Part shown: piece after piece, positions 5,230 to 44,991 of the stretch
Layout of the letters: the number at the start of each line of letters is the position of its first letter
Position numbering within the stretch: position 1 is the first letter of the stretch
The notes under the pieces: model-generated
Database searches by the model: none
Told to the model about the DNA's origin: nothing
Seen by the model: only the letters and a program-made list of their open reading frames with translations
Origin: Candidatus Kapaibacterium sp.
GTDB lineage: Bacteria; Bacteroidota; Ignavibacteria; Palsa-1295
Direction of reading: 5' to 3'
Assembly: GCA_038322815.1 (NCBI GenBank)
Contig: JBBQGG010000002.1
Coordinates: 41,899-105,898 of the forward strand
DNA: 64,000 nt
Position numbers and translations under genes: made by a program

Positions 5230-6438
5230 ATGCATATAATCAGGATGTTTGCGGTATTTTTTCTGCTTTTATTAAGCAGAGGATATGCATTCTCGAATGG
5301 AAAAAATCCTGAGCGGCAATACAAAAAATTTTTACAAAAAATAACAAAAATAAAATCCGGTAAAATTTCGTATGAATTGGATAAAAAACCATTTTACAAA
5401 TCCAATTCCCGCAAAGATTTATACCAACTTGAATACACTCGATCAGAAACCGATTCTAATAAATATGCTCTTTGGATACATATCCCGGAATTGGGTGTTG
5501 ATGAGATATATTCAAATGATACCGCTCACACCGTCTGGCACAAGAAGAAGGTCATCACATGGAAGAGAATGACTCCCGGCGAATACAGGGATGAAGTAAG
5601 CAACGATCTCTCAAACTTTACATTTGGTATCCCTGGTTCAATAATCAAGAAAACACTTTCTACGGACACACTTTTTTCCGACACAATTATTAATCGCAAT
5701 GCTTTTGTTAAGATACTGAAAACAAATAAACTGAAGGGTCACAATGCAGACTCCACTGAAACATCTTTTATTTTTTCATTGGAAGATAATAATAAAATGA
5801 CCTTTGAAAATAAAATTTGGCGTGATGGAGAAGTACAGATTTTTCAGGAAAAAAATCGACAGGCTGTGTATTCTGATTTTTTCGATATCTTTCTTGCAAA
5901 GAGAATACATGATTACCTCCATCATCTACTTCGCGACTCTAATTATACACTTGTTGCTGAGGATGATTTCTCTCCTTTTCAAGATTCAGGGAAACAAAAA
6001 TTCATTCAAGTAGGAGATACTTTTCTTTCTGCCGGTTACCAGACAATTGCCGGGGAAGATATAGATATTTCGGAATTTCATTCGAAATTAACACTCTTGG
6101 ATTTTAGTTATATGGCTTGTGAGCCCTGCAGGCAGTCTATTCCTTTTATTGTGAATCTTTTCAAAAAATATCAGGATAGTGGTTTGAGAATATGGGGTAT
6201 TGATCCATTTGATAAAAAGGAAAAAGATATTTTTTTACGATACGCATCAAGATACCATATAGATTTTCCTATGCTCTTTACTGATAAAACTAAAATGAAA
6301 GAAATAGGTATCAATGGTTATCCGACGTATGTGCTTCTTGATAAAAATATGAAAGTTCTCTCTGTATTCAATGGCTTTGGACCATTATCTGTTGATTCAT
6401 TTCTTGAACCTCAGATAAAGGATTTTCTCCGCAGATAG
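5230..6438 (+). CDS. secreted protein with C-terminal TlpA-like thioredoxin-fold domain (CEPC motif)
   Basis: It has a signal peptide. The C-terminal ~130 aa carry a CxxC motif (MACEPCRQ) and redoxin-like secondary-structure motifs. Confidence 0.55.
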   Translation: MHIIRMFAVFFLLLLSRGYAFSNGKNPERQYKKFLQKITKIKSGKISYELDKKPFYKSNSRKDLYQLEYTRSETDSNKYALWIHIPELGVDEIYSNDTAHTVWHKKKVITWKRMTPGEYRDEVSNDLSNFTFGIPGSIIKKTLSTDTLFSDTIINRNAFVKILKTNKLKGHNADSTETSFIFSLEDNNKMTFENKIWRDGEVQIFQEKNRQAVYSDFFDIFLAKRIHDYLHHLLRDSNYTLVAEDDFSPFQDSGKQKFIQVGDTFLSAGYQTIAGEDIDISEFHSKLTLLDFSYMACEPCRQSIPFIVNLFKKYQDSGLRIWGIDPFDKKEKDIFLRYASRYHIDFPMLFTDKTKMKEIGINGYPTYVLLDKNMKVLSVFNGFGPLSVDSFLEPQIKDFLRR

Positions 6439-6539
6439 CGCAGCAAAATTTCCTGCCCAGATGATGAATGGTCTTTACGTGTTGCCGGCATAATGGTGCT
6501 TATATTTTGTAAGACTAAGTTATGAAAAAATCAAATGCA

Positions 6540-6715
6540 GTCATTTCGAACGGAGTCTGCCGCGACGAAGGAGCGGGAGACGTAGAGAGAAATCTATATA
6601 ATAAGAATAAGTCATTATTTCTTCTCCCTATTGGGAATTTAAAGGATCTATTCTTATTAATAGATTTCTCTCTCCTTTTCGCTCTTGGGGAGCGAAACTC
6701 CGTTCGGAATGACAA
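6540..6715. repeat. ~175-bp imperfect palindromic (MITE-like / cruciform) element
   Basis: A left arm gtcatttcgaacggagt...agagagaaatctatataataagaataag pairs with a right arm cttattcttattaatagatttctctct...actccgttcggaatgac. Each arm has an internal hairpin. A half copy lies at 16355-16412. Confidence 0.5.
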
Positions 6716-6823
6716 AGCAGGCCGTACTCCTCACTTTCCTGAAACTTAAATAGTCTATAATTGAATTTACTATTAGCTTGCCCACATCGGATTTAGTACA
6801 TTATAACAGAACATAGTAATATT

Positions 6824-9793
6824 ATGTCACGTTTTTACATCTTCGCTGCGCTTTCATGCATTGGACTTTCTTTTCTTTATGCGCCATCCGTTTTTGCGCA
6901 GCAAACCGAGTCTTCGGAAAATGAGCTTTTGAAATCAGCCGTTACCGTGCCAAATGAAATTGGTGTATATAAAGGGATCAATTCCATTCCCGAAGCTATC
7001 CGCAAGACAAAGCCTTTTGCCAGACTGCTTTCGGATATGCAGCACACTTCCGGACTTAATGGTATCTATGAGCGGCAAACACGTATCGAAGCTTTCGGGC
7101 AGTCGCAATCCGATCTGTTCCGCGATGCGATGATCGCGGATAAAGTATCAGGCAGCAAGCTTCCCGTTTTTTCGGCAGCATGGGTAAATGTCGGACCGGT
7201 AAATACGGGAGGATGCACGAAGGCATTAGCCTTTCATCCAACAGATGGAAATACGATCTATGCCGGAGCTGCTGCAGGTGGTGTATGGAAAACAACGAAT
7301 GCCGGATCGTCATGGACTCCGCTGACCGATCTTGTTATACCCGATCTTGCCGTAGCTTCTATAGCTGTCGATCCATCTTCTCCAAATACGATCTATGTCG
7401 GCTCGGGTGATCCCTCCGTTGCCTCTGACGGATTGCCGGGTACAGGGCTGTATAAATCTACTGATGCAGGATCGACATGGAACCGCATGGCTTCAGCAAC
7501 ATTGACCGGAGGCGTAAATAAAGTTCTTGTTCATCCGACCAATTCTAATATCGTTTTTGCATGCAGCTACGATAATGGTCGAGGTGTGTACCGCTCAACA
7601 AATGGCGGAGTAACATTCACAAAAGTATTTACTGCTGCGGCAGTTATCTGGGATATTATCTCCGCGCAAAAGATCGGCAATCAGTTGCTGATGTATTTTG
7701 TCGAAGGAAATCAGCCTGGCGGTACTTCAACAGAATGCGGAGTATATAAATCACTTGATGACGGAGCAACATGGATAAAGATATCTGTAGGCGGTTTACC
7801 GGCAGGGAATACTATTGGTAAATCTGCTCTTGCAATTCCTTCCGGTGATAAAACAAAGGTCTATTGTCTGATGGCAAAACCCGATGGAAATTTACAGGGA
7901 TTATATCTATCCACAAACTCCGGAGTACTATTCAATCAGGTTGCAACAGTTCCTTCGTCGATCTTTAATCCCAACGGCAACGGTCCGCAGGGTTGGTACG
8001 ATCTTTATCTTGCCATCGCGCCTACGACAACACCAAACGATACGCTTTATATCGGAGGGGTCGAAGCGTATTATTCTTTCAATAGCGGCAACTCATGGAC
8101 TGCCTACAGTGATTATAGCGGCACCCATAACGTCCATGTTGATAATCAATCAATTGCTATCGACCCTACCAATTCGCGCAGAGTCTATACTGGAACAGAT
8201 GGCGGAGTCTATCGCTCTATTGATGCGGGGCAAACATGGACATACCGTTCTGCCGGAATGGAAACCATGCGCTTTTACCATATAGGTCTTGATAAGAATG
8301 ATTTCTTAAAAACCTATGCCGGAGCTCAGGATCAAGGAACCTGGAAAGTGACTTCAGGTCAATCACCGTCGCAGATCTTTGGTGGCGATGGGTTCCAGCC
8401 TATTGTCGATCCGAGTAATTCAAATACGATCTATGCTGAGGGTCCGGTCGGCGATCTATTTAAATCAACAAACGGAGGCGGAAATTTTACTTCGATCGAC
8501 GATCCTGCTTTTGTACAGGGAAATGCGAATTTCGAGCCTTCGGATTGGGAAACGCCATTTGCTATGGCACCGAAAAACAGTTCGACACTCTTTACCGGAA
8601 GGCAGCGTCTTTGGCAAAGTGTCAATGGCGGTAGTTCATGGAATGCGATCTCTCCAACACTGGTGCTCAATAATTATACCTATTTAATCGAATCCATCGG
8701 TTTATCGCCTGCCAATAACCAACACTTTTGGACGGGATATCAAGGCGGAAAGATCAGACTTACTACCGATGGCGGTTCGAATTGGGCTGATAAATCTACA
8801 GGATTACCGGGAAGTACTGTCCGTTCGATCGTCTGCCATCCAACCGATGCAGCGTGGGCACTTGCAGCATTTGAATCGTATGGAAATGCAGTGCGTGTTA
8901 TGCGCACCACAAATTCCGGAACTTCGTGGACAAATGTTTCGGGGACTACAGCAAAACTTCCGGGTGTGCCGGTGAATTGTGTGGCGCTTGACTCTACCAG
9001 TCCTTCAACGGTATGGTATGCGGCAACTGATAACGGAATTTATTATACGCGCGATGCAGGAGTTACCTGGTCAATAGCGGGTTCAGGTTTAGGACTTGCT
9101 CCGTGCTGGGATGTCCAGGTACATGCGAATAAGACAACGATCCGAGTCGGAACGCATGGCAGAAGCATTTGGGAAGGCAACGTCAATATTCTTCCCGTCG
9201 AACTTACGGGACTAAGCGCTACGAAAACAATTACCGGCACAAAGCTCGATTGGAAAACAGATAGCGAGCGAAGTAACTCGGGCTTCAAAGTAGAACGCAG
9301 TTATAATTATGCGACATTCGAAGAGCTAAGTTTTATTCCGGGAGCAGGAAATTCAAATACGGAAATTTCGTACAACTATTTCGATCCGAAACATGATGAC
9401 GGATATTATATCTATCGCCTTGAACAAGTTGATCTTGATGGCTCAACCCATTTATCGAATATCGTGGAAGTCCGCTATGGTGCAGCATCTGCACTGCGCT
9501 TAGACCAGAGCTTTCCGAACCCTTTCTTTGCCGGCAGTGCAGCAACAGGAAGTGCCCGAATCCGATACGAACTACCGAATCCCGATGAAGTAACACTGAA
9601 ATTTGTTTCGGTATCCGGCGCCGTCGTTCGTACGCTCATTGACCACCAAACTCAGCAAGCAGGTGAACAAAATATCTTCTGGGATGGTACCGATGATAAG
9701 GGACTTCCTGTGGCAAGCGGAGTATACTATTACAGACTCGATACGAAATCAGGAAGCAGCCTCTGGAATAAAATGATTTTGGTTACGAAGTAA
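6824..9793 (+). CDS. BNR/Asp-box repeat protein (sialidase/GH74-like beta-propellers) with T9SS C-terminal sorting domain
   Basis: It has a signal peptide and many SxDxGxTW Asp-box repeats. The C-terminal ~80 aa match the Por/T9SS sorting-domain pattern. Confidence 0.75.
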   Translation: MSRFYIFAALSCIGLSFLYAPSVFAQQTESSENELLKSAVTVPNEIGVYKGINSIPEAIRKTKPFARLLSDMQHTSGLNGIYERQTRIEAFGQSQSDLFRDAMIADKVSGSKLPVFSAAWVNVGPVNTGGCTKALAFHPTDGNTIYAGAAAGGVWKTTNAGSSWTPLTDLVIPDLAVASIAVDPSSPNTIYVGSGDPSVASDGLPGTGLYKSTDAGSTWNRMASATLTGGVNKVLVHPTNSNIVFACSYDNGRGVYRSTNGGVTFTKVFTAAAVIWDIISAQKIGNQLLMYFVEGNQPGGTSTECGVYKSLDDGATWIKISVGGLPAGNTIGKSALAIPSGDKTKVYCLMAKPDGNLQGLYLSTNSGVLFNQVATVPSSIFNPNGNGPQGWYDLYLAIAPTTTPNDTLYIGGVEAYYSFNSGNSWTAYSDYSGTHNVHVDNQSIAIDPTNSRRVYTGTDGGVYRSIDAGQTWTYRSAGMETMRFYHIGLDKNDFLKTYAGAQDQGTWKVTSGQSPSQIFGGDGFQPIVDPSNSNTIYAEGPVGDLFKSTNGGGNFTSIDDPAFVQGNANFEPSDWETPFAMAPKNSSTLFTGRQRLWQSVNGGSSWNAISPTLVLNNYTYLIESIGLSPANNQHFWTGYQGGKIRLTTDGGSNWADKSTGLPGSTVRSIVCHPTDAAWALAAFESYGNAVRVMRTTNSGTSWTNVSGTTAKLPGVPVNCVALDSTSPSTVWYAATDNGIYYTRDAGVTWSIAGSGLGLAPCWDVQVHANKTTIRVGTHGRSIWEGNVNILPVELTGLSATKTITGTKLDWKTDSERSNSGFKVERSYNYATFEELSFIPGAGNSNTEISYNYFDPKHDDGYYIYRLEQVDLDGSTHLSNIVEVRYGAASALRLDQSFPNPFFAGSAATGSARIRYELPNPDEVTLKFVSVSGAVVRTLIDHQTQQAGEQNIFWDGTDDKGLPVASGVYYYRLDTKSGSSLWNKMILVTK

Positions 9794-37820: not shown

Positions 37821-38449
37821 TTACTTCAATACAATGAAAGAAGCATTTAGTATGCTCTTTCCAATTACAATGCGACAATAGTACTTTCCTGCTGCTAACG
37901 AATCGGTTGGGATTTGAGCTGAAAATGCACCGCTTGAAAGAGCTTCTTCATAATATGCAACTTCTACACAGTCTGATGAGAAAACTTTTATCTCAACCGA
38001 CGATGCATTTTGAATCTTAAAATTAATATTTGCATGATCTCTTGCAGGGTTCGGAAAAATATGAAGTGAGTTTTGAACAGCCTCGTCAGTGGATATTCTT
38101 TGTACAGAAAGTTTTAATGAATTGACTCTGCCATCAATAACCGGCTTTATCGTATCGCGTGCTGCAATATATCTTGAAATGACTTGAAACTCCGATGTAT
38201 CTTTATAAATATGGACACCGCTGAGAGGAATTCCAATTGCACCTAAGAACATGGCTGCGAATTCATTGGCTGCTACCCAAATTCAGCAATACCTATATAT
38301 GGTATCCCTGACCAGATTGTCAGAGAGGTCTTTCCCTCATTCGGAAACAGTGCATCCTGTTTTGGAGCAGGTACAAGTTGGGCTGATGAGATTTGAACTG
38401 TAGTGAGTATTACATAAAATGCAATGAGAATGCGAGTGATGTTTTTCAT
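37821..38449 (-). CDS. small secreted protein with T9SS C-terminal domain; frameshift near 38270
   Basis: The signal-peptide ORF (track 38273..38491, MKNITRILIAFYVILTTVQISSAQ...) ends at a TAG. The CTD ORF (37821..38252) is open right after a TGA in the adjacent frame. Confidence 0.45.
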
Positions 38450-38474
38450 ATTGTTTTGCATCAGAAAATGTGAT

Positions 38475-38554
38475 TGAATTTCGTGATACAAAAATGGCGA
38501 ATATGAATACCCGAATTGTCACCAATCTTTCAGAGGATTGTCAAAAGATTGTCA
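38475..38554. promoter_or_regulatory. conserved ~85-bp upstream module, copy 1, with direct repeat GATTGTCA-aaa-GATTGTCA (11-bp phase)
   Basis: It is about 85% identical to 39721-39803. It lies 5' of the minus-strand gene that starts at 38449. Confidence 0.45.
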
Positions 38555-38597
38555 TATAGACGAGATCGAACTTTAAGGCTAAAAATACCGTCGTATT

Positions 38598-39641
38598 TTA
38601 CGCTTGAGAGATTGCCCTGGTTCTGGTTTTTAGAAGCGCAATTATTTCTTCTTTATTTCGAGGAGGATTTTGTAGTTCAACAAAATGACGGACTAAAATG
38701 TCATATCGTTTGAACATAAGAAGGAGCCAAACCATAATGAAATCAATGCCTGAAAATATGATCGCGCCCCGATTCTTATACATCTCATTATTCTGCTGGA
38801 ATTCAATAGGCATATCTGTCCAGTGAAGCGAGGATTTGTGATGATGTCCAATATGATAGCCATCATTAAAGCTCCGGCGGTTATAACGACTGTTGATGAG
38901 GGTAATGCTACTCGCGAATGGATCTTCAGGACGAGAGGGGTCAATAAAAGCATGTTGTCCCCAATTTCCAGCAATCATTACAAAACGACAAAAAATGAAT
39001 GGAACAATAAAGACGACCAGTGTTGCCTGCCAGTTTATTAAACATAAAGCGGCAACAGAGAGAAAAAAACTAATCTCACCGGCAACTATGCGAATGAGCA
39101 GTTTCCGACGCCGCTTCTTCGCCATGTAAATGGTGAGATTGAAAAAAGTACCGAAGAAGAAACGAAGAAAATATCTAAACCAGCCAGTGAATGAGTCTCT
39201 CTGATAGTTCATAGTCGAACTAAGATCGGCTTCAAGATTTTCTTCGACATGATGCATCCCGACATGATGGACAAAGTATGTCTCGGGCGATTCTCCAAAA
39301 AGCGGGCCAAGTATCCAAACAATATATTGATTAAAAATCCGGTACTTTTTGCGAAAGAGCGGACGATGACTCGTATTATGGAGGATCAGAATGAATCGGT
39401 CCATATAAAAAAAGATATTAAAGGGCACATAGAGCGCCAGTATGATCCAATGAGGAGAGCCGAGATAGATGTAAAATACGAGAGGCACAATAACTAGAGT
39501 CGCTTCTATCAGGAAGCGCATAAAAGGCAGATCGCGGGGATCATTAATAAGTCGAAGGAGGAACCTGTCAAAAAAATTATTCGAGGCTTTCGGCTTGTAT
39601 GTCGGATCTGTGATGGTCAGTATATTTGTACTTTCTCTCAC
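38598..39641 (-). CDS. membrane fatty-acid desaturase family protein
   Basis: It has three His boxes (HNTSH, HHVGMHH and HIGHHH), with TM helices between them. Confidence 0.8.
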   Translation of the reverse strand: MRESTNILTITDPTYKPKASNNFFDRFLLRLINDPRDLPFMRFLIEATLVIVPLVFYIYLGSPHWIILALYVPFNIFFYMDRFILILHNTSHRPLFRKKYRIFNQYIVWILGPLFGESPETYFVHHVGMHHVEENLEADLSSTMNYQRDSFTGWFRYFLRFFFGTFFNLTIYMAKKRRRKLLIRIVAGEISFFLSVAALCLINWQATLVVFIVPFIFCRFVMIAGNWGQHAFIDPSRPEDPFASSITLINSRYNRRSFNDGYHIGHHHKSSLHWTDMPIEFQQNNEMYKNRGAIIFSGIDFIMVWLLLMFKRYDILVRHFVELQNPPRNKEEIIALLKTRTRAISQA

Positions 39642-39720
39642 ATTAACTCAGTTATATATAGAACACTTACTGAGACATTATTATTCGTTGATTTTTTCAT
39701 TACTCTTCAAAAAAATGCAA

Positions 39721-39803
39721 TGAATTTCGTAATACAAAAATAGCGAATTCGAGAACCCGAATTGCCACAGAATCTTCAGATAGTTGTCAAAAGATTGTCA
39801 TTA
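39721..39803. promoter_or_regulatory. conserved ~85-bp upstream module, copy 2 (AGTTGTCA-aaa-GATTGTCA), between desaturase start and response-regulator end
   Basis: It aligns to 38475-38554. Confidence 0.45.
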
Positions 39804-39857: not shown

Positions 39858-40539
39858 CTACTTTAAAAACTTGTACCCAGATGTATGTACAGTAATCAAA
39901 TGCTTCGGTTCGGAGGGGTCGTCTTCGATCTTCTTGCGAATGGAAAGAATATAATTATCCACGGTTCGAGTCGTGGGAAAAACATCATAGCCCCAGACTT
40001 CATCGAGCAATTTATCGCGACCTAAGACTTCACCTTCATGCTCGATGAAAAATTTTATGATCTGAAATTCTTTTGCCGATAGTTTGAGGGGGTTTTTCTT
40101 CTTCAGTGCTTCTTGTTTTTTGAAATCGAAATGCAGATCGCCAAAGGATGATTCTTCGATTCCTTTTTTTAGATCTTGCGTGCGACGCAGAAGGGCTTTG
40201 ATCCGGGCTTTGAGTTCGCGAATGCTGAATGGCTTTGTCATGTAATCGTCAGCGCCGATCTCAAGACCAAGCACTTTATCGATCTCCTCCGATTTACTTG
40301 TAAGCATTATCACAAGAGTATTAATACCTTCTTTACGAAGTTCGCTGCAAATTTCCATGCCGTCTTTGCCGGGCAGCATGATATCGAGCAAGATGAGATC
40401 AACGCTGGGATTTTTCGCCTGCTTCAATCCGTCAATACCATCGGATGCAAGAAGCACATCATAATTATCTTCACTAAGCCCTGCTTCGAGAGCTATGCGA
40501 ATGGCAGGATCGTCTTCGACAATAAGAATTTTTTTTATT
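39858..40539 (-). CDS. OmpR/PhoB-family response regulator
   Basis: The REC domain (KKILIVEDDPAIRIALEAGLSEDNYDVLLASDGIDGL...LDIMLPGKDG) is followed by a winged-helix DNA-binding domain. The conserved N-terminus is in frame, but the only candidate start is an ATA that overlaps the kinase stop (ATAA). Confidence 0.75.
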
Positions 40540-42106
40540 GTAATATGAAGGGAAAATGTAATACAAAAATACTGCCTTTTCCAAGTTCGCTCGTAACTTC
40601 TACTTTTCCCTTATGTGCATCCATCGTATGCTTGACAAGTGAAAGTCCCAGTCCTGCTCCACCTGCGGATTTCATGACAAAGTCGTCGATCCGGTAGAAA
40701 GCTTCAAAAATATGTTCTATCTCATTATGTGCGATTCCATATCCTTCATCTTGGACGCTTATAGTGGCATGTTCATCATTATACGAAGTAGAGATGATGA
40801 TTTTTTTTCTCTCCGAAGGTGAATATTTCATCGTGTTCGTGATCAGATTTGTAATTGTATCTGCAATAGCGTCGGCATCGCCACTGATTAAAAAAGCCGA
40901 GTGTTCGAGTTGAGTATGGATTGTAAATCCCTTAGAATGAATCTGGTACTCTAACGAATATATCACACTTTTGACAATGCAATTAAGATCGAGGGGCTTC
41001 ATGTTATAATCCTTTGTCCCTTTTTCGATCTTCGCAAAATCGAGAACGTTGGTGATAAGTCTGGAAAGTCTATCCGCTTCACCCTCAATAATGTCGAGAT
41101 ATTCAATCGTTTTTTTGCGTGGGAGATTTTCATGCTCCTTGATCAGTTCAACAAAGAGACGGATGGAGGTTAAAGGAGTTTTCAGATCATGCGAAACACT
41201 TGAAACGAAATAGGATTTCAATTTATTGAGTTCAGAAAGCCTTTCGGATTCTGCCTGCTCGAGCAATAGTGCATACTCGACTTTAAGCCGCTCGAACGAA
41301 AGACCCGTTTGCGTGCTTACTGAAGTGAGCAGTGAAATATCTTCAATACTAAACCGTGTACCGGAAAGTTTTTCTCCGAGAACGAGAAAGCCGAAAATAT
41401 TTCTATCGGAGGAAAGCATCGGCAGAACCAATGCCATTCCCCAACGCTTGAAGACATCATTATCCGCAGATTCGAATTCTATACCCGGTTCGATTTTATT
41501 ATCAAGAGCTACGGGAAGTTCAAGCCCGGATTTGAGATCGTTTTTAGATAGTTGGACATGGCGACGTTCAAGAATATCGAAATGATGATGAGCAATGAGT
41601 CTGAGTTTATCGGTCGGAGATTCGACAACAAAAAATCCGATCTTTGTTACGGGCAGCAGAGAATGGATCCGCTGAGTCACTAAATTGGTAAGCGCAATCT
41701 TAGTATTGACAAATTTTATTTCTTCTAAAAAATTGCGCTGCGCTTCGTGGAAATTATACGAAACACGAAAGAACTTCTTGTCCACAGATTTTTGCACCCA
41801 TCTTCTTAACGGTTCAAAAAGCAAGGCAATGAACATTGCTCCGATGATATTTGGCAGGGCAGATGGAATGTCCAGAGTGAGGGTGAATTGAGTAAATAAC
41901 CAGACAATCCCAAGATATAAGCCAAGGAGTAATCCGATGACCAGCGAATAGACTGAACTTCGTCTGATTAAAAGATCAATATCGAATACTCTGTATCGAA
42001 CGATAGCAATGGCAAAACATAACGGAGCGATGATTGAGAGTACGATTAAGTATTCTTCCGGCAATAACAATCTCTGAATAAGTATTCTGGGAAGGATGGA
42101 AAACAA
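40535..42106 (-). CDS. sensor histidine kinase (HisKA + HATPase_c) core; frame continues upstream to about 42268
   Basis: It has a phosphoacceptor His (SHDLKTPL) and N, G1 and G2 boxes. The upstream in-frame stretch ...FVGFGNIIHSYKIVKEEFERRKLRWIFFGIIFGATPYI lacks a start codon. Confidence 0.8.
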   Translation of the reverse strand: MFSILPRILIQRLLLPEEYLIVLSIIAPLCFAIAIVRYRVFDIDLLIRRSSVYSLVIGLLLGLYLGIVWLFTQFTLTLDIPSALPNIIGAMFIALLFEPLRRWVQKSVDKKFFRVSYNFHEAQRNFLEEIKFVNTKIALTNLVTQRIHSLLPVTKIGFFVVESPTDKLRLIAHHHFDILERRHVQLSKNDLKSGLELPVALDNKIEPGIEFESADNDVFKRWGMALVLPMLSSDRNIFGFLVLGEKLSGTRFSIEDISLLTSVSTQTGLSFERLKVEYALLLEQAESERLSELNKLKSYFVSSVSHDLKTPLTSIRLFVELIKEHENLPRKKTIEYLDIIEGEADRLSRLITNVLDFAKIEKGTKDYNMKPLDLNCIVKSVIYSLEYQIHSKGFTIHTQLEHSAFLISGDADAIADTITNLITNTMKYSPSERKKIIISTSYNDEHATISVQDEGYGIAHNEIEHIFEAFYRIDDFVMKSAGGAGLGLSLVKHTMDAHKGKVEVTSELGKGSIFVLHFPFILQ

Positions 42107-42213
42107 TATATACGGAGTTGCGCCGAATATTATCCCAAAGAAGATCCAGCGCAGTTTTCGGCGCTCGAATTCTTCTTTTACAATCTTGTAAGAATGAATG
42201 ATATTTCCGAAGC

Positions 42214-42696
42214 CTACAAAAAAAAGCAGAAAATGAGAATGGCAGTAAATGATTTGTGGTAGAATTCATAATATCCCAGATCAACTACAGGATACGAAGC
42301 ACGGAAGAAATTAATACATGTCAACACCGATAGCACAGCGCCAATAAAATAGACCGGCAACAATACTTTTTTTACGACCGAAGATTTTGGATAAGGGAAG
42401 ATAAGCGTGAAATGCAGAAATAGGATCGGAACGATGGTATATGATATATAGAAAACTATTTCGAGCAGATATGCAATTTCAAGCGGGCGGATAGTATTTC
42501 TTCCTGGAGTAAGCAGAATAAGGGTGGCAATCGCAATACATAAGGAATGAAAGATCAGGGCGGCTTTCTCCTTTTTTTGAAAGAGGATAACGGCAATACC
42601 TATCAAGAAAAAAATACCCGATGTAAAACATTCAATGAAAATTTTCGATGGGATAATCACGAAGCAAGGTTGAAGTGACGAATTGCTCTTTTCCAT
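42214..42696 (-). CDS. multi-TM membrane fragment, probably the sensor-domain part of the same histidine kinase (frameshifted)
   Basis: It has about 4 TM helices. Its stop lies in an A8/T8 homopolymer (42217-42226), and the kinase frame reopens there. Confidence 0.4.
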   Translation of the reverse strand: MEKSNSSLQPCFVIIPSKIFIECFTSGIFFLIGIAVILFQKKEKAALIFHSLCIAIATLILLTPGRNTIRPLEIAYLLEIVFYISYTIVPILFLHFTLIFPYPKSSVVKKVLLPVYFIGAVLSVLTCINFFRASYPVVDLGYYEFYHKSFTAILIFCFFL

Positions 42697-42982
42697 TGCT
42701 CAGCATTTTCACAGAAACATTTTCGCCAATCGCATATTGATTGCAAAGGAATTCTATTTGTTCAGAGGAGGTAATGTGCTGTCCATTTATTGAAAGTATC
42801 GTATCGCCCGGATGAAAAAGTGAGTGGTTTGAGGAAATATTTTTTATGACTACAGCATCACCATTATCTTCTGCGTTCTCCGGAAATCCGGCTTTTTCGG
42901 AAAGGCGATATACTCCTAATCCGCAAATGATGAGGAGAAGGAGATCAATGACAAGGATGTAGGCTGTTCTACGCAAGTTCAA
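42632..42982 (-). CDS. N-terminal TM anchor + PDZ-like domain fragment, probably the N-terminus of the same kinase
   Basis: The PDZ-like segment GDTILSINGQHITSSEQIEFL...GENVSVKMLSNGKE is followed by an overlap with the next fragment in another frame. Confidence 0.4.
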   Translation of the reverse strand: MNLRRTAYILVIDLLLLIICGLGVYRLSEKAGFPENAEDNGDAVVIKNISSNHSLFHPGDTILSINGQHITSSEQIEFLCNQYAIGENVSVKMLSNGKEQFVTSTLLRDYPIENFH

Positions 42983-43037: not shown

Positions 43038-44861
43038 TTACCGTATTCCAAAATACCGTGCTTCAGGATGGTGGCAGATGATTGCCGTTGTCGATTGCTC
43101 GGGTTCGAGATGGTATTCCTCTGTCAGGGTAATATCTATCCTCTCGGGATGTAGGAGATCAAAAAGCTTTGTCTGATCCTCAAGATCGGGGCAGGCAGGG
43201 TAACCAAAAGAATAACGGGAGCCGCGATAACCTTGGCTGAAGAGGCGGTGAATATCCTCTGCATCAGCGGAGCCAATACCAAGTTCTGTGCGGATAATCT
43301 TATGGAGATACTCGGCAAGCGCCTCGGCAGTTTCGACGGAAAAGCCGTGAAGGTAAAGATAATCGACGTATTTATTATCGGCAAAAAGTTTAGCGGTGTA
43401 CTCACTTGCTTTTCTGCCGACAGTGACTGCGCTCATTCCAACAACATCAGGTTTACCGAGGGCAAATGCCTCCTCTTTTGTCAGAAAAAAACTTGAGATG
43501 CATAAATGTTTCCCTCCCGGTTGGCGGGGAAATGTGAAGCGTTTGTATTCGCTGAGTGAATCGAGTGCAATTTTTGAATTCCATTTACTCTGCAATTCTG
43601 CAGGGGCAAGATCATTTGGCTTTAAGATAATAAGATCATCACCTTCTGACCAACATGGGAAATATCCGTATACCGCTTGCGGTTTTAAGATGTGCTGCTG
43701 TTTGCAGAGCAGCATTAATTCATGCAATTTCGGACGCGCAACGTCTTCGATCTGCTTCGTATGCTCTTCAACAGTTTTCTTTCCACGCTTTAATTGCCAT
43801 TGTCCGCGAAAGAGAGCAACTTCATTGAGGTATTTCCAAACCGAATCAAGAATAAATTGCTCCTGAACATCCACTCCCCAAAATGGCGGAGTAGGAACAT
43901 CATTCAGGCGAGTAATTTCCTTCTCCTCAAACTTCTGACTTCTAACTTCTGACTTCTGACTTCCTCCCGTCAGCCACGGCACATCACGCTTTGCCAACAC
44001 CATCTTCGATTCTTCGCCGGTAGCATTATCAAGCTCTTCTTCTATCTCATCAGTTTTATCTATTTCGGCAAATTCCGAGACAACATCGTTGATTGTACCG
44101 GATTTCAATTTTTCCATGAAATGCAAACCGTCGAATGCATCTTGCGCGTACCAAAGTGTTCCGCCGTAAAGTGCGCGAAGATCTTTCTCGACGAATTTTC
44201 TCGTTAATGCTGCCCCGCCAAGCACGACGGGTATCTCTAATCCTCTGCCTTGCATCACTTCGAGATTCTCTTTCATGATTGCAGTGGATTTCACAAGCAA
44301 GCCTGACATACCGATAGCATCGGCTTTTTCGCGAACGAAAGCGTCAAGCATTGGCTCTAGCGCCATTTTGATCCCGAGATTGACAACGCGATAACCGTTA
44401 TTGGTAAGAATAATATCTACAAGATTTTTTCCAATATCATGCACATCACCTTTCACTGTTGCAAGAACCATCACGCCTTTGGATTGCTCGCCCTCGACCT
44501 TTTCCATGAAAGGCTCAAGATATTTCACGGCGGTCTTCATTGTCTCAGCAGATTGAAGAACGAAAGGAAGCTGCATTTCGCCGGCGCCGAAAAGCTCGCC
44601 GACAACCTTCATGCCGCCAAGCAAAATATTATTAATAATATCAAGAGCAGGATATGTTTTCAGTCCTTCAGTAAGATCAGTATCCAGACCGATCTTGTCG
44701 CCATCAATGATGCGCTGCTTCAGCCGCTCTTCGACAGCCATGCCAACATACGAGGAAGTTTCCTTCTTCGTCGATTTTGCATCGGCATAATGCGCCATAA
44801 AAAGTACGAGCGGATCGTACGTGCAATGCTGTTCCTGAATATTTTTGTTTTCTTCGCTCAT
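43038..44861 (-). CDS. metH: methionine synthase C-terminal half: B12-binding cap + cobalamin-binding (DxHxxG) + AdoMet reactivation domain
   Basis: It has the cobalamin motif VKGDVHDIGKN, the segment SGLL...GGA, and the reactivation-domain motifs FPRQPGGKHLCISSFF, AEALAEYLHK and GYPACPD. It has no Hcy or folate domains. Confidence 0.8.
   Translation of the reverse strand: MSEENKNIQEQHCTYDPLVLFMAHYADAKSTKKETSSYVGMAVEERLKQRIIDGDKIGLDTDLTEGLKTYPALDIINNILLGGMKVVGELFGAGEMQLPFVLQSAETMKTAVKYLEPFMEKVEGEQSKGVMVLATVKGDVHDIGKNLVDIILTNNGYRVVNLGIKMALEPMLDAFVREKADAIGMSGLLVKSTAIMKENLEVMQGRGLEIPVVLGGAALTRKFVEKDLRALYGGTLWYAQDAFDGLHFMEKLKSGTINDVVSEFAEIDKTDEIEEELDNATGEESKMVLAKRDVPWLTGGSQKSEVRSQKFEEKEITRLNDVPTPPFWGVDVQEQFILDSVWKYLNEVALFRGQWQLKRGKKTVEEHTKQIEDVARPKLHELMLLCKQQHILKPQAVYGYFPCWSEGDDLIILKPNDLAPAELQSKWNSKIALDSLSEYKRFTFPRQPGGKHLCISSFFLTKEEAFALGKPDVVGMSAVTVGRKASEYTAKLFADNKYVDYLYLHGFSVETAEALAEYLHKIIRTELGIGSADAEDIHRLFSQGYRGSRYSFGYPACPDLEDQTKLFDLLHPERIDITLTEEYHLEPEQSTTAIICHHPEARYFGIR
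43931..43964. repeat. heptanucleotide tandem repeat (ACTTCTG x ~4.7) inside metH linker
   Basis: The sequence reads acttctg acttcta acttctg acttctg acttcc. It encodes SQKSEVRSQKFEE across three frames. Confidence 0.6.
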
Positions 44862-44897: not shown

Positions 44898-44991
44898 AAG
44901 AGAGAAATCTTGTCACGACGCTTTAGCTCTATCTTTAATGTGGTGAGCAAGCTATCGGTCAAAGCGCCACAATTATGGGGATATAAACGGG

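Follow-up and report, generated by a model that had tools for sequence, protein, structure and literature searches.

Phased TGACAA repeats flanking a desaturase gene in Candidatus Kapaibacterium as predicted operators of an adjacent OmpR-type response regulator

Two similar promoter-like modules flank a membrane fatty-acid-desaturase-family gene in a 64-kb stretch of a Candidatus Kapaibacterium genome (contig JBBQGG010000002.1; all 64,000 nucleotides analyzed are hereafter called the window), next to the genes of a sensor histidine kinase and an OmpR/PhoB-family response regulator, and the locus raises the question of which protein reads the modules and with what effect. The architecture of the modules, its conservation among relatives and its co-occurrence with the regulator gene were observed directly, and the 11-bp-phased boxes within the modules are strongly supported as predicted operators of the adjacent OmpR-type regulator.

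Architecture and conservation of the modules

Both copies, c1 downstream and c2 upstream of the desaturase gene (Table 1), were present where a preliminary description of the window had placed them, although their identity over 38475-38554 and 39721-39803 was 81% in a global alignment (68 of 84 columns matching) instead of the approximately 85% given there. The best local alignment, 38442-38555 against 39693-39801, had 90 of 115 columns matching (78%) and reached a score of 55 vs a maximum of 16 in shuffled sequences (n = 500), while the 17-mer TTGTCAAAAGATTGTCA occurred exactly twice, at 38538-38554 and 39784-39800. The repeats read earlier as [AG][AT]TTGTCA do exist, but since the local genes near both modules are all on the minus strand, the gene strand reads TGACAA. 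Likewise, the tandem direct repeat at one helical turn was correctly recognized in its 11-bp phase, but each module has four phased positions, at 0, 11, 22 and 33 bp, and not two, the third being degenerate (TGAAAG or TGAAGA). The complete gene-strand module reads TGACAA-N5-TGACAA-N5-(degenerate third box)-N5-TG(A/G)CAA-N19-(C/T)ATTTTTG-TA, with the fourth box, B4 (TGACAA or TGGCAA), located exactly 19 bp upstream of (C/T)ATTTTTG. The motif was not widespread in the 64 kb searched: exact TGACA-N6-TGACA had two sites, both in the modules, against 0.10 expected, and none of 100 shuffles reached two, while tolerance of two mismatches only added background matches.

The promoter consensus established for Flavobacterium/Bacteroidetes is TTG-N17-23-TAnnTTTG (bioRxiv 10.1101/172254). 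The TAnnTTTG element around position -7 was found in full in c2 (TATTTTTG) and in seven of eight positions in c1 (CATTTTTG), was kept in relatives, and lies 17-63 nt upstream of the start codons of the driven genes. No TTG element of the -33 type was present at 17-23 bp in c1 or c2, where the nearest TTG or GTG is at least 26 bp away and B4 is found instead; in box variants reading TTGACAA at B4 the TTG spacing is 23 bp, which is borderline.

The conservation of this layout was followed in loci (given below as L numbers) that had been fetched by a protein search with the desaturase at 65-91% identity, the DNA pattern not being used. All orthologous desaturase loci of the Ignavibacteria/Kapabacteria-like clade obtained in this way (L003/L004, L005, L141, L142, L143 and L134) keep the boxes and the B4 spacing, having TGACA boxes with B4-N19-(-7) in front of the desaturase or of the first gene of its operon, and in most of them the desaturase is also followed by a second module. 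Synteny with the window was seen in L003/L004, which encode an intact 815-aa kinase and a 226-aa regulator; here the module preceding the desaturase is degenerate and the one following it perfect. In L005, whose desaturase is 91% identical, the order is regulator, module, 221-aa exported protein and desaturase. L141 shows full synteny with the window, including the S1, 355-aa and OsmC genes, and has modules on both sides of the desaturase, while L143 presents the regulator (80%), a module, the desaturase, another module, and then genes of a 231-aa and a 179-aa family. In L142 and L134 a B3-B4 pair precedes the desaturase with the same 19-bp spacing. The sole desaturase-fetched locus without a module was the GC-rich L006, probably from a different lineage. 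A 231-aa exported protein and the desaturase adjoin there (6246-8021) despite the absence of the module, and are neighbours in L141, L143 and L134 as well, which suggests a functional pairing of the two independent of this regulator.

In the anchored alignment B4 was TGACAA in 12 of 15 instances and TGGCAA in the other three, with constant spacing and diverging spacers, and the 11-bp phase (0, 11, (22), 33 bp) was present in both window copies and in the 15 anchored instances from relatives. The B4-N19-(-7/-10) distance was exact in all instances, including those in which the -7 element had not been part of the search pattern (window c1/c2, L003a/b, L005, L013, L090, L106, L134a, L141a/b, L142, L143a/b, L144 and L148). 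The pattern of a metagenome scan did impose the -7 element, and its 13 loci were left out as evidence for the conservation of this element. In the lineage of L146 the element downstream of B4 resembles TAnnnT and the 19-bp spacing is kept. Because B4 and the 19-bp spacing have been retained in relatives while the spacers diverged, the two modules flanking the desaturase are judged from these comparisons to be an old, selected arrangement, ancestral in the clade, and not a recent accident.

The close resemblance of c1 and c2 probably has a more local origin. Modules downstream of the desaturase (b-type) have the start-region signature TA(T/C)NACGAAATTCA and, ahead of the -7 element, the stretch ATTCGCC, and modules upstream of it in L003, L141, L143 and L134 (a-type) have neither. 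Window c2 and the L005 module are b-type despite their position upstream of the desaturase, suggesting that duplication or conversion in the lineage of the window and L005 placed a b-type promoter there, along with the beginning of an exported-protein gene; c1 and c2 of the window would be so similar because c2 is a b-type copy. The 221-aa gene of L005 is missing in the window, where the c2 leader aligns with its 5' end and then jumps to the pre-desaturase spacer. An explanation of the duplicated promoter by a single family of module-driven small exported proteins was rejected, as the three types (the 231-aa family, the 179-aa family and the 221-aa protein of L005) had no detectable homology to each other.

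Two side observations concern the promoter region itself. The b-type modules (window 38470-38505 and 39716-39751; L144 at about 8790-8815; L130) have an imperfect palindrome, ATTCGC-N11/12-GCGAAAT, around the -7 element, which in L130 shows a symmetric change (AATTTG...CAAAATT) and may serve a second, dimeric regulator as its operator. In L141 (4720-4860) the regulator stop is directly followed by a promoter-like TTGACAA-N16-TATTTTTG and, after approximately 60 nt, by a strong terminator hairpin; this site may be a small RNA gene.

Association of the boxes with the adjacent regulator

The reciprocal set consisted of five loci fetched purely by regulator homology, four of which include DNA downstream of the regulator gene, and all four (L144, L145, L146 and L148) carry phased boxes. 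A full module directly follows the regulator stop in L144 (regulator 84% identical) and L148 (92%). In the more distant L146 (64%), eight pattern matches were present at six sites in 16.7 kb against 0.01 expected, all of them intergenic and gene-directed, pointing at a DUF3108-desaturase-PAP2-diacylglycerol (DAG)-kinase operon, an outer-membrane protein (OMP) beta-barrel gene, the PDZ kinase itself, an Omp85-like gene and two small genes, and L145 (65%) had three sites against 0.03 expected. The clustering of boxes around the regulator genes of the last two loci amounts to 100 to 800 times the chance expectation. The sequence of the fifth locus, L147 (96%), stops 13 bp after the regulator stop, without boxes, and is uninformative here.

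A three-box DNA scan, which covered 185,579 species genomes without being a regulon census and from which only filtered module-like matches were used, gave a list made up mostly of chance matches and of long tandem arrays with 11-bp units in Bacteroidales. Among the matches listed, an orthologous regulator was adjacent to the boxes in L090 (68% identical, with a 40%-identical PDZ kinase) and in L116 (58%), both from Kapabacteria/Ignavibacteriales. Also among them were loci of Opitutaceae, Planctomycetes and Acidobacteria that have a full-length OmpR-type regulator and a kinase nearby in a constant arrangement: in Opitutaceae (at least seven genomes) four phased boxes, a VWA secreted protein, a kinase and a regulator, and in Planctomycetes (at least two loci) a kinase and a regulator with boxes 40-130 bp past the regulator stop. 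In L138, from the metagenome scan, a kinase and a regulator (50%) are followed by the module. The recognition-helix signature (P/G)TTRT[VLI]D[NTQ] was common to the box-adjacent regulators in three phyla and was absent from PhoB, OmpR, WalR and two incidental neighbouring regulators. The earlier proposal that the modules are operators of this regulator was thus borne out at the level of prediction by the spacing conserved in relatives, by the reciprocal test and by the box arrays beside OmpR-type regulators in three phyla.

The Opitutaceae loci (L009, L014, L017, L024, L042, L080, L088 and L115) share a four-box promoter (TGACAA, TGACAA, TGACC., TGACAA) heading the VWA/kinase/regulator operon, which probably regulates itself through a member of the same regulator subfamily. 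The 11-bp tandem arrays with TGACAA (5 to >15 units), found in many metagenome-assembled genomes of Bacteroidales/Bacteroidota and in a few other taxa (L010, L015, L018, L020, L027, L029, L030, L033, L095, L101 and L110, among others), are not promoter modules.

In view of these associations it is hardly credible that the modules represent a duplicated promoter without a dedicated regulator, in which the repeats would be incidental -35-like TTGACA hexamers, a mobile repeat or a structured leader RNA. Such an origin would suit the presence of c1 and c2 as paralogous copies in one genome and the identity of TTGACA with the sigma-70 -35 consensus, which was flagged by a scan; but boxes, phase and 19-bp spacing are kept among relatives with proteins only 65-73% identical, while the spacers diverge, and the boxes gather at regulator genes far above chance. 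A mobile repeat (miniature inverted-repeat transposable element or repetitive extragenic palindrome) was rejected, the modules being without terminal inverted repeats or target duplications and present as two copies in 64 kb, in the same orientation and both upstream of genes. A cis-regulatory RNA was rejected as well: Rfam had no match in the module region and the fold z-scores were +0.66, -1.42, -1.80 and -1.85. The predicted RNA folds differ between c1 and c2.

The regulator reached no NCBIfam equivalog cutoff and is not a PhoB, WalR, OmpR, RpaB or RprY equivalog. Its best models were WalR/YycF (207.5 bits, cutoff 340) and PhoB (TIGR02154, 201.9 vs 296.2; NF053854, Bacteroidota PhoB, 165 vs 270; NF007546, 144 vs 471), the OmpR and RpaB equivalogs scored 188 (cutoff 331) and 193 (cutoff 330), respectively, and the closest solved structure was that of RegX3. 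The kinase has HisKA (PF00512) in a PDZ, multi-transmembrane and GAF-like architecture and reached neither a PhoR cutoff nor that of any other NCBIfam equivalog; PDZ-bearing histidine kinases are a minor class among surveyed microbial PDZ proteins (PMC6411480).

Apart from PhoB, nothing relevant to TTGTCA/TGACAA direct repeats associated with response regulators was found in the literature searched. Hexamers of the TGT.A type at intervals of 11 bp are recognized by both WalR and PhoB, the WalR/YycF sites of Firmicutes being TGT(A/T)A(A/T/C)-N5 direct repeats. The present system shares with WalR its best-scoring family model, the hexamer-N5-hexamer geometry and, as predicted here, the control of cell-envelope genes, but differs in a score far under the cutoff, in the fourth base of the hexamer (C vs A/T), in kinase architecture and in phylum. 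There are also resemblances to the PhoB/Pho box system of Escherichia coli (pstS, phoA). In both, an OmpR-family winged-helix regulator is paired with 6-7 bp cores that contain TGTCA and recur every 11 bp, with two to four copies lying against or across the -35 region of a promoter that has no good -35 element, and class II-type activation is proposed here as well; the consensus of the Pho box is CTGTCAT-A(AT)A(TA)-CTGT(CA)A(CT) (PMC3465305). The differences are that the regulator is not a PhoB equivalog, that the kinase has a PDZ/multi-transmembrane/GAF architecture vs the PAS architecture of PhoR, that the TGTCA core is on the opposite strand, and that the proximal box ends 19 bp vs approximately 10 bp before the -10/-7 element.

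This resemblance has to be weighed against the assignment to the adjacent regulator, since the boxes might belong to another global regulator, such as the true PhoB of this genome, with the neighbouring regulator merely a frequent member of its regulon. Besides the TGTCA core at an 11-bp period, phosphate scavenging would be suited by the secreted 5'-nucleotidase, the lipid-remodelling genes and the glucose-methanol-choline (GMC) oxidoreductases with a twin-arginine translocation (TAT)-signal subunit found under such modules, and some sources label the orthologues of the regulator 'alkaline phosphatase synthesis response regulator PhoP'. This possibility is nevertheless considered very unlikely: the adjacent regulator failed both PhoB models (TIGR02154 and NF053854), the PDZ and multi-transmembrane parts of the kinase are unlike PhoR, no pst or phoU genes were present in any fetched locus, the orientation of the boxes is opposite to that of Pho boxes, and in three phyla the boxes adjoin members of this regulator subfamily with the shared recognition-helix signature.

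Proposed mode of action and predicted regulon

It is likely that the modules are activator-dependent promoters of the Bacteroidota type, read by the adjacent regulator in its phosphorylated form. The kinase (transmembrane-PDZ-multi-transmembrane-GAF-HisKA-HATPase) would phosphorylate the regulator, whose half-sites would be the consensus TGACA(A/T) boxes placed 11 bp apart on one face of the helix; the phosphorylated regulator would bind as head-to-tail dimers at B1-B2 and B3-B4, with B4 over the -35/-33 region, where most modules are without a canonically spaced TTG, and would recruit RNA polymerase in the manner of PhoB at the Pho box. In the window c2 would drive the desaturase through a coupled 20-codon upstream open reading frame (ORF), and c1 a small exported protein.

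The opposite sign of control is an unlikely but serious alternative, in which occupancy of B3-B4 would cover the -35 region and block RNA polymerase, so that the signal, or loss of the system, would de-repress the desaturase and the exported proteins. Repression would be consistent with the overlap of B4 with the -35/-33 region and with the fully intact desaturase ORF beside a damaged kinase and regulator start, as expected if loss of the system means constitutive expression. A roadblock, however, would not need the exact 19-bp distance between B4 and the -7 element that was found in every instance, including the L146 lineage, and the lack of a canonically spaced TTG -33 in most modules suggests weak promoters needing help. 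The strict spacing argues for direct contact with RNA polymerase, i.e., for activation of the PhoB kind.

Several points weigh against activation by the adjacent regulator. Its support consists of co-occurrence and conservation, with binding and expression predicted from sequence. A box over the -35 region would be equally compatible with repression, and an intact desaturase beside a damaged regulatory system would be more readily explained by a regulator that represses or is dispensable. The orientation of the boxes relative to transcription is opposite to that of the Escherichia coli Pho boxes, and some modules are far from any regulator gene (L106, L134 and L013), which fits either a dispersed regulon or a different regulator. 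Finally, TAnnTTTG was not enriched upstream of crude gene calls in the window (5 sense vs 5 antisense occurrences), so the -7 assignment rests on its conservation.

The mechanism class is a textbook one, an OmpR-family regulator acting on phased direct repeats. OmpR itself at ompF/ompC resembles the predicted system in that its head-to-tail dimer sites are arranged in tandem and in helical phase, reach down to the -35 region from upstream and control outer-membrane proteins; it differs in its recognition sequence, and the present regulator is not its equivalog. To our knowledge, no transcription factor-operator pair has previously been characterized in Ignavibacteria/Kapabacteria. What makes the prediction valuable is not a new principle but a clean regulator-operator-regulon assignment in a clade not studied before, together with a testable motif, in which TGACA(A/T) recurs every 11 bp and the final box lies 19 bp upstream of the -7 element.

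The preliminary description had envisaged a small local regulon in an arrangement resembling membrane-fluidity thermosensing circuits. The desaturase and local genes do belong to the predicted regulon, but in relatives it is wider, taking in exported and outer-membrane proteins, 5'-nucleotidase, PAP2, lipid kinase and GMC oxidoreductases. Across relatives, the genes headed by modules encode exported or envelope proteins or lipid enzymes: predicted targets are the 231-aa family, the 179-aa family (which has a weak match to an OMP beta-barrel), lipoproteins, TPR/PD40 proteins, TAT-signal subunits beside GMC oxidoreductases, a 5'-nucleotidase with a type IX secretion system (T9SS) tail, the desaturase, PAP2 and DAG-kinase-like genes. 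This first sketch of the regulon joins a PDZ sensor kinase to a desaturase, lipid phosphatase and lipid kinase genes and small outer-membrane proteins. Given a regulon of envelope and lipid genes and the periplasmic PDZ and multi-transmembrane block of the kinase, the system probably responds to a cue from the envelope or membrane; neither temperature nor membrane fluidity is singled out by any result here.

In L146 (1-16681) the regulator and PDZ kinase are clustered with a DUF3108-desaturase-PAP2-DAG-kinase-like operon and with OMP beta-barrel and Omp85/phosphodiesterase genes, each with phased boxes in front. The system is accompanied by desaturase, PAP2 and lipid kinase genes in L141, L116, L145 and L148 as well, which hints at a specific lipid-modification pathway.

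The analogy drawn earlier with DesK-DesR-des, the membrane-thickness thermosensor of Bacillus subtilis, held as an analogy only. A multi-transmembrane kinase and a regulator are likewise encoded beside the desaturase gene that they would control. DesR is a regulator of the NarL/LuxR type, and DesK a HisKA_3 kinase with five transmembrane segments and without a periplasmic domain; the window has instead an OmpR-type regulator with Trans_reg_C (PF00486) and a kinase with HisKA and PDZ. An OmpR-family regulator and a membrane kinase are also combined in Hik33-Rre26 (RpaB), which serves cold and light signalling in Synechocystis. RpaB binds HLR1 sites, which are TTACA-type repeats with another spacing, and the regulator of the window is well under the RpaB cutoff. 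Hik33-Rre26 has been implicated in cold-inducible expression with membrane rigidification as the supposed signal, while the control of desB has been attributed to DNA supercoiling and not tied to Hik33 (reviewed in PMC3264485).

A broader and rather doubtful proposal is that the box-adjacent regulators form an undescribed OmpR subfamily with the helix (P/G)TTRT-x-D-[NTQ] and a TGACA(A/T) code, ranging over Ignavibacteria/Kapabacteria, Verrucomicrobia and Planctomycetes, paired with PDZ-plus-multi-transmembrane kinases in the Ignavibacteria-like clade and governing a locally clustered envelope/lipid stress regulon (desaturase, PAP2, DAG-kinase-like, small outer-membrane proteins, Omp85-like and 5'-nucleotidase) analogous to that of Cpx or sigma-E. 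If so, the PDZ domain would sense misfolded outer-membrane proteins or the lipid state.

State of the locus in the window

The order on the minus strand is a MetH-like gene, the kinase in three ORFs, the regulator, c2, the desaturase, c1, a 58-codon ORF and a 143-codon ORF with a T9SS sorting domain (Table 1). The desaturase reached no NCBIfam equivalog cutoff, and its subtype was not assignable in that way.

Table 1. Coordinates of the modules and genes of the desaturase locus (positions in the window)
Feature	Position	Strand	Remarks
MetH-like B12-binding gene	43038-44861	minus	B12-binding and activation domains only
Sensor histidine kinase	40535-42982	minus	transmembrane, PDZ, multi-transmembrane, GAF-like, HisKA, HATPase
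Kinase ORFs	42632-42982; 42214-42696; 40535-42106	minus	PDZ in the first; HisKA and HATPase in the last
OmpR/PhoB-family response regulator	39858-40538	minus	receiver and winged-helix Trans_reg_C (PF00486)
Module copy 2 (c2)	39693-39803	minus	between regulator stop and desaturase
c2 boxes	B1 39800-39795; B2 39789-39784; B3 39778-39773; B4 39767-39762	minus	TGACAA; TGACAA; TGAAGA (degenerate); TGGCAA
c2 -7 element	39742-39735	minus	TATTTTTG, after 19-bp spacer; predicted transcription start near 39730
20-codon upstream ORF	39638-39700	minus	MKKSTNNNVSVSVLYITELM*; TGA stop overlaps desaturase GTG start
Membrane fatty-acid-desaturase-family gene	38598-39641	minus	intact, 347 aa, PF00487, GTG start; c2-driven (predicted)
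Module copy 1 (c1)	38442-38555	minus	between desaturase stop and 58-codon ORF
c1 boxes	B1 38554-38549; B2 38543-38538; B3 38532-38527; B4 38521-38516	minus	TGACAA; TGACAA; TGAAAG (degenerate); TGACAA
c1 -7 element	38496-38489	minus	CATTTTTG, after 19-bp spacer; predicted start near 38484; ATG at 38449
58-codon ORF	38273-38449	minus	c1-driven (predicted); N-terminal remnant of ~231-aa exported-protein family, profile E 5.6e-19
143-codon ORF	37821-38252	minus	T9SS C-terminal sorting domain; C-terminal remnant of 623-aa 5'-nucleotidase

The multi-transmembrane sensor kinase of the preliminary description was right as to its layout, but two frameshifts split the gene into three ORFs. The intact kinases of L003, L141 and L148 (813-817 aa) are collinear with it, and comparison with these and with L147 (83% DNA identity to the window) located two compensating frameshifts, near 42640-42660 and at the T8 run 42218-42225, with stop codons between them. 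The T8 homopolymer is a slippery, potentially phase-variable site, and two other assemblies have the identical sequence. The body of the regulator is 92-96% identical to relatives (92% to the intact 226-aa protein of L003, 96% to L147), while its start codon (40538-40536) is ATA in the window vs ATG in L003, L090 and L147, and the overlap with the kinase stop reads ATAA vs ATGA in the same three loci.

The stop of the 20-codon ORF on the desaturase start suggests translational coupling. When this ORF is aligned with L005, its 5' part matches the beginning of the 221-aa gene and its 3' part the spacer in front of the desaturase, and it therefore looks like the scar of an approximately 640-bp deletion which removed an L005-type 221-aa gene. 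The 'small T9SS gene' reported earlier downstream of c1 has the T9SS tail but resolves into two separate remnants. The 58-codon ORF comprises a signal peptide and approximately 35 residues of the ~231-aa family, whose gene is located after the desaturase in L141, L143 and L134 but before it in L006, and the 143-codon ORF is 56% identical to residues 482-623 of the L003 5'-nucleotidase; the two remnants lying back to back at 37821-38449 imply a deletion relative to L003 and L141.

Two public assemblies match the window (L001, 100%; L002, 99.98%, 4,910 of 4,911 bases), and the agreement of two independent assemblies means that the gene lesions are not the errors of one. Since the kinase has two frameshifts, the regulator an ATA start and two of the driven genes are remnants, the circuit is probably impaired, weakened or dead in this genome, with the desaturase and both modules intact. 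Such a decaying sensor/regulator pair beside intact operators and one intact target is a natural case that could help to tell activation from repression.

Directly upstream of the MetH-like gene, at 44903-44980 on the minus strand, a marginal Rfam match to the SAM-II riboswitch (SAM_alpha, RF00521) was obtained, with 36.4 bits vs a gathering score of 36.

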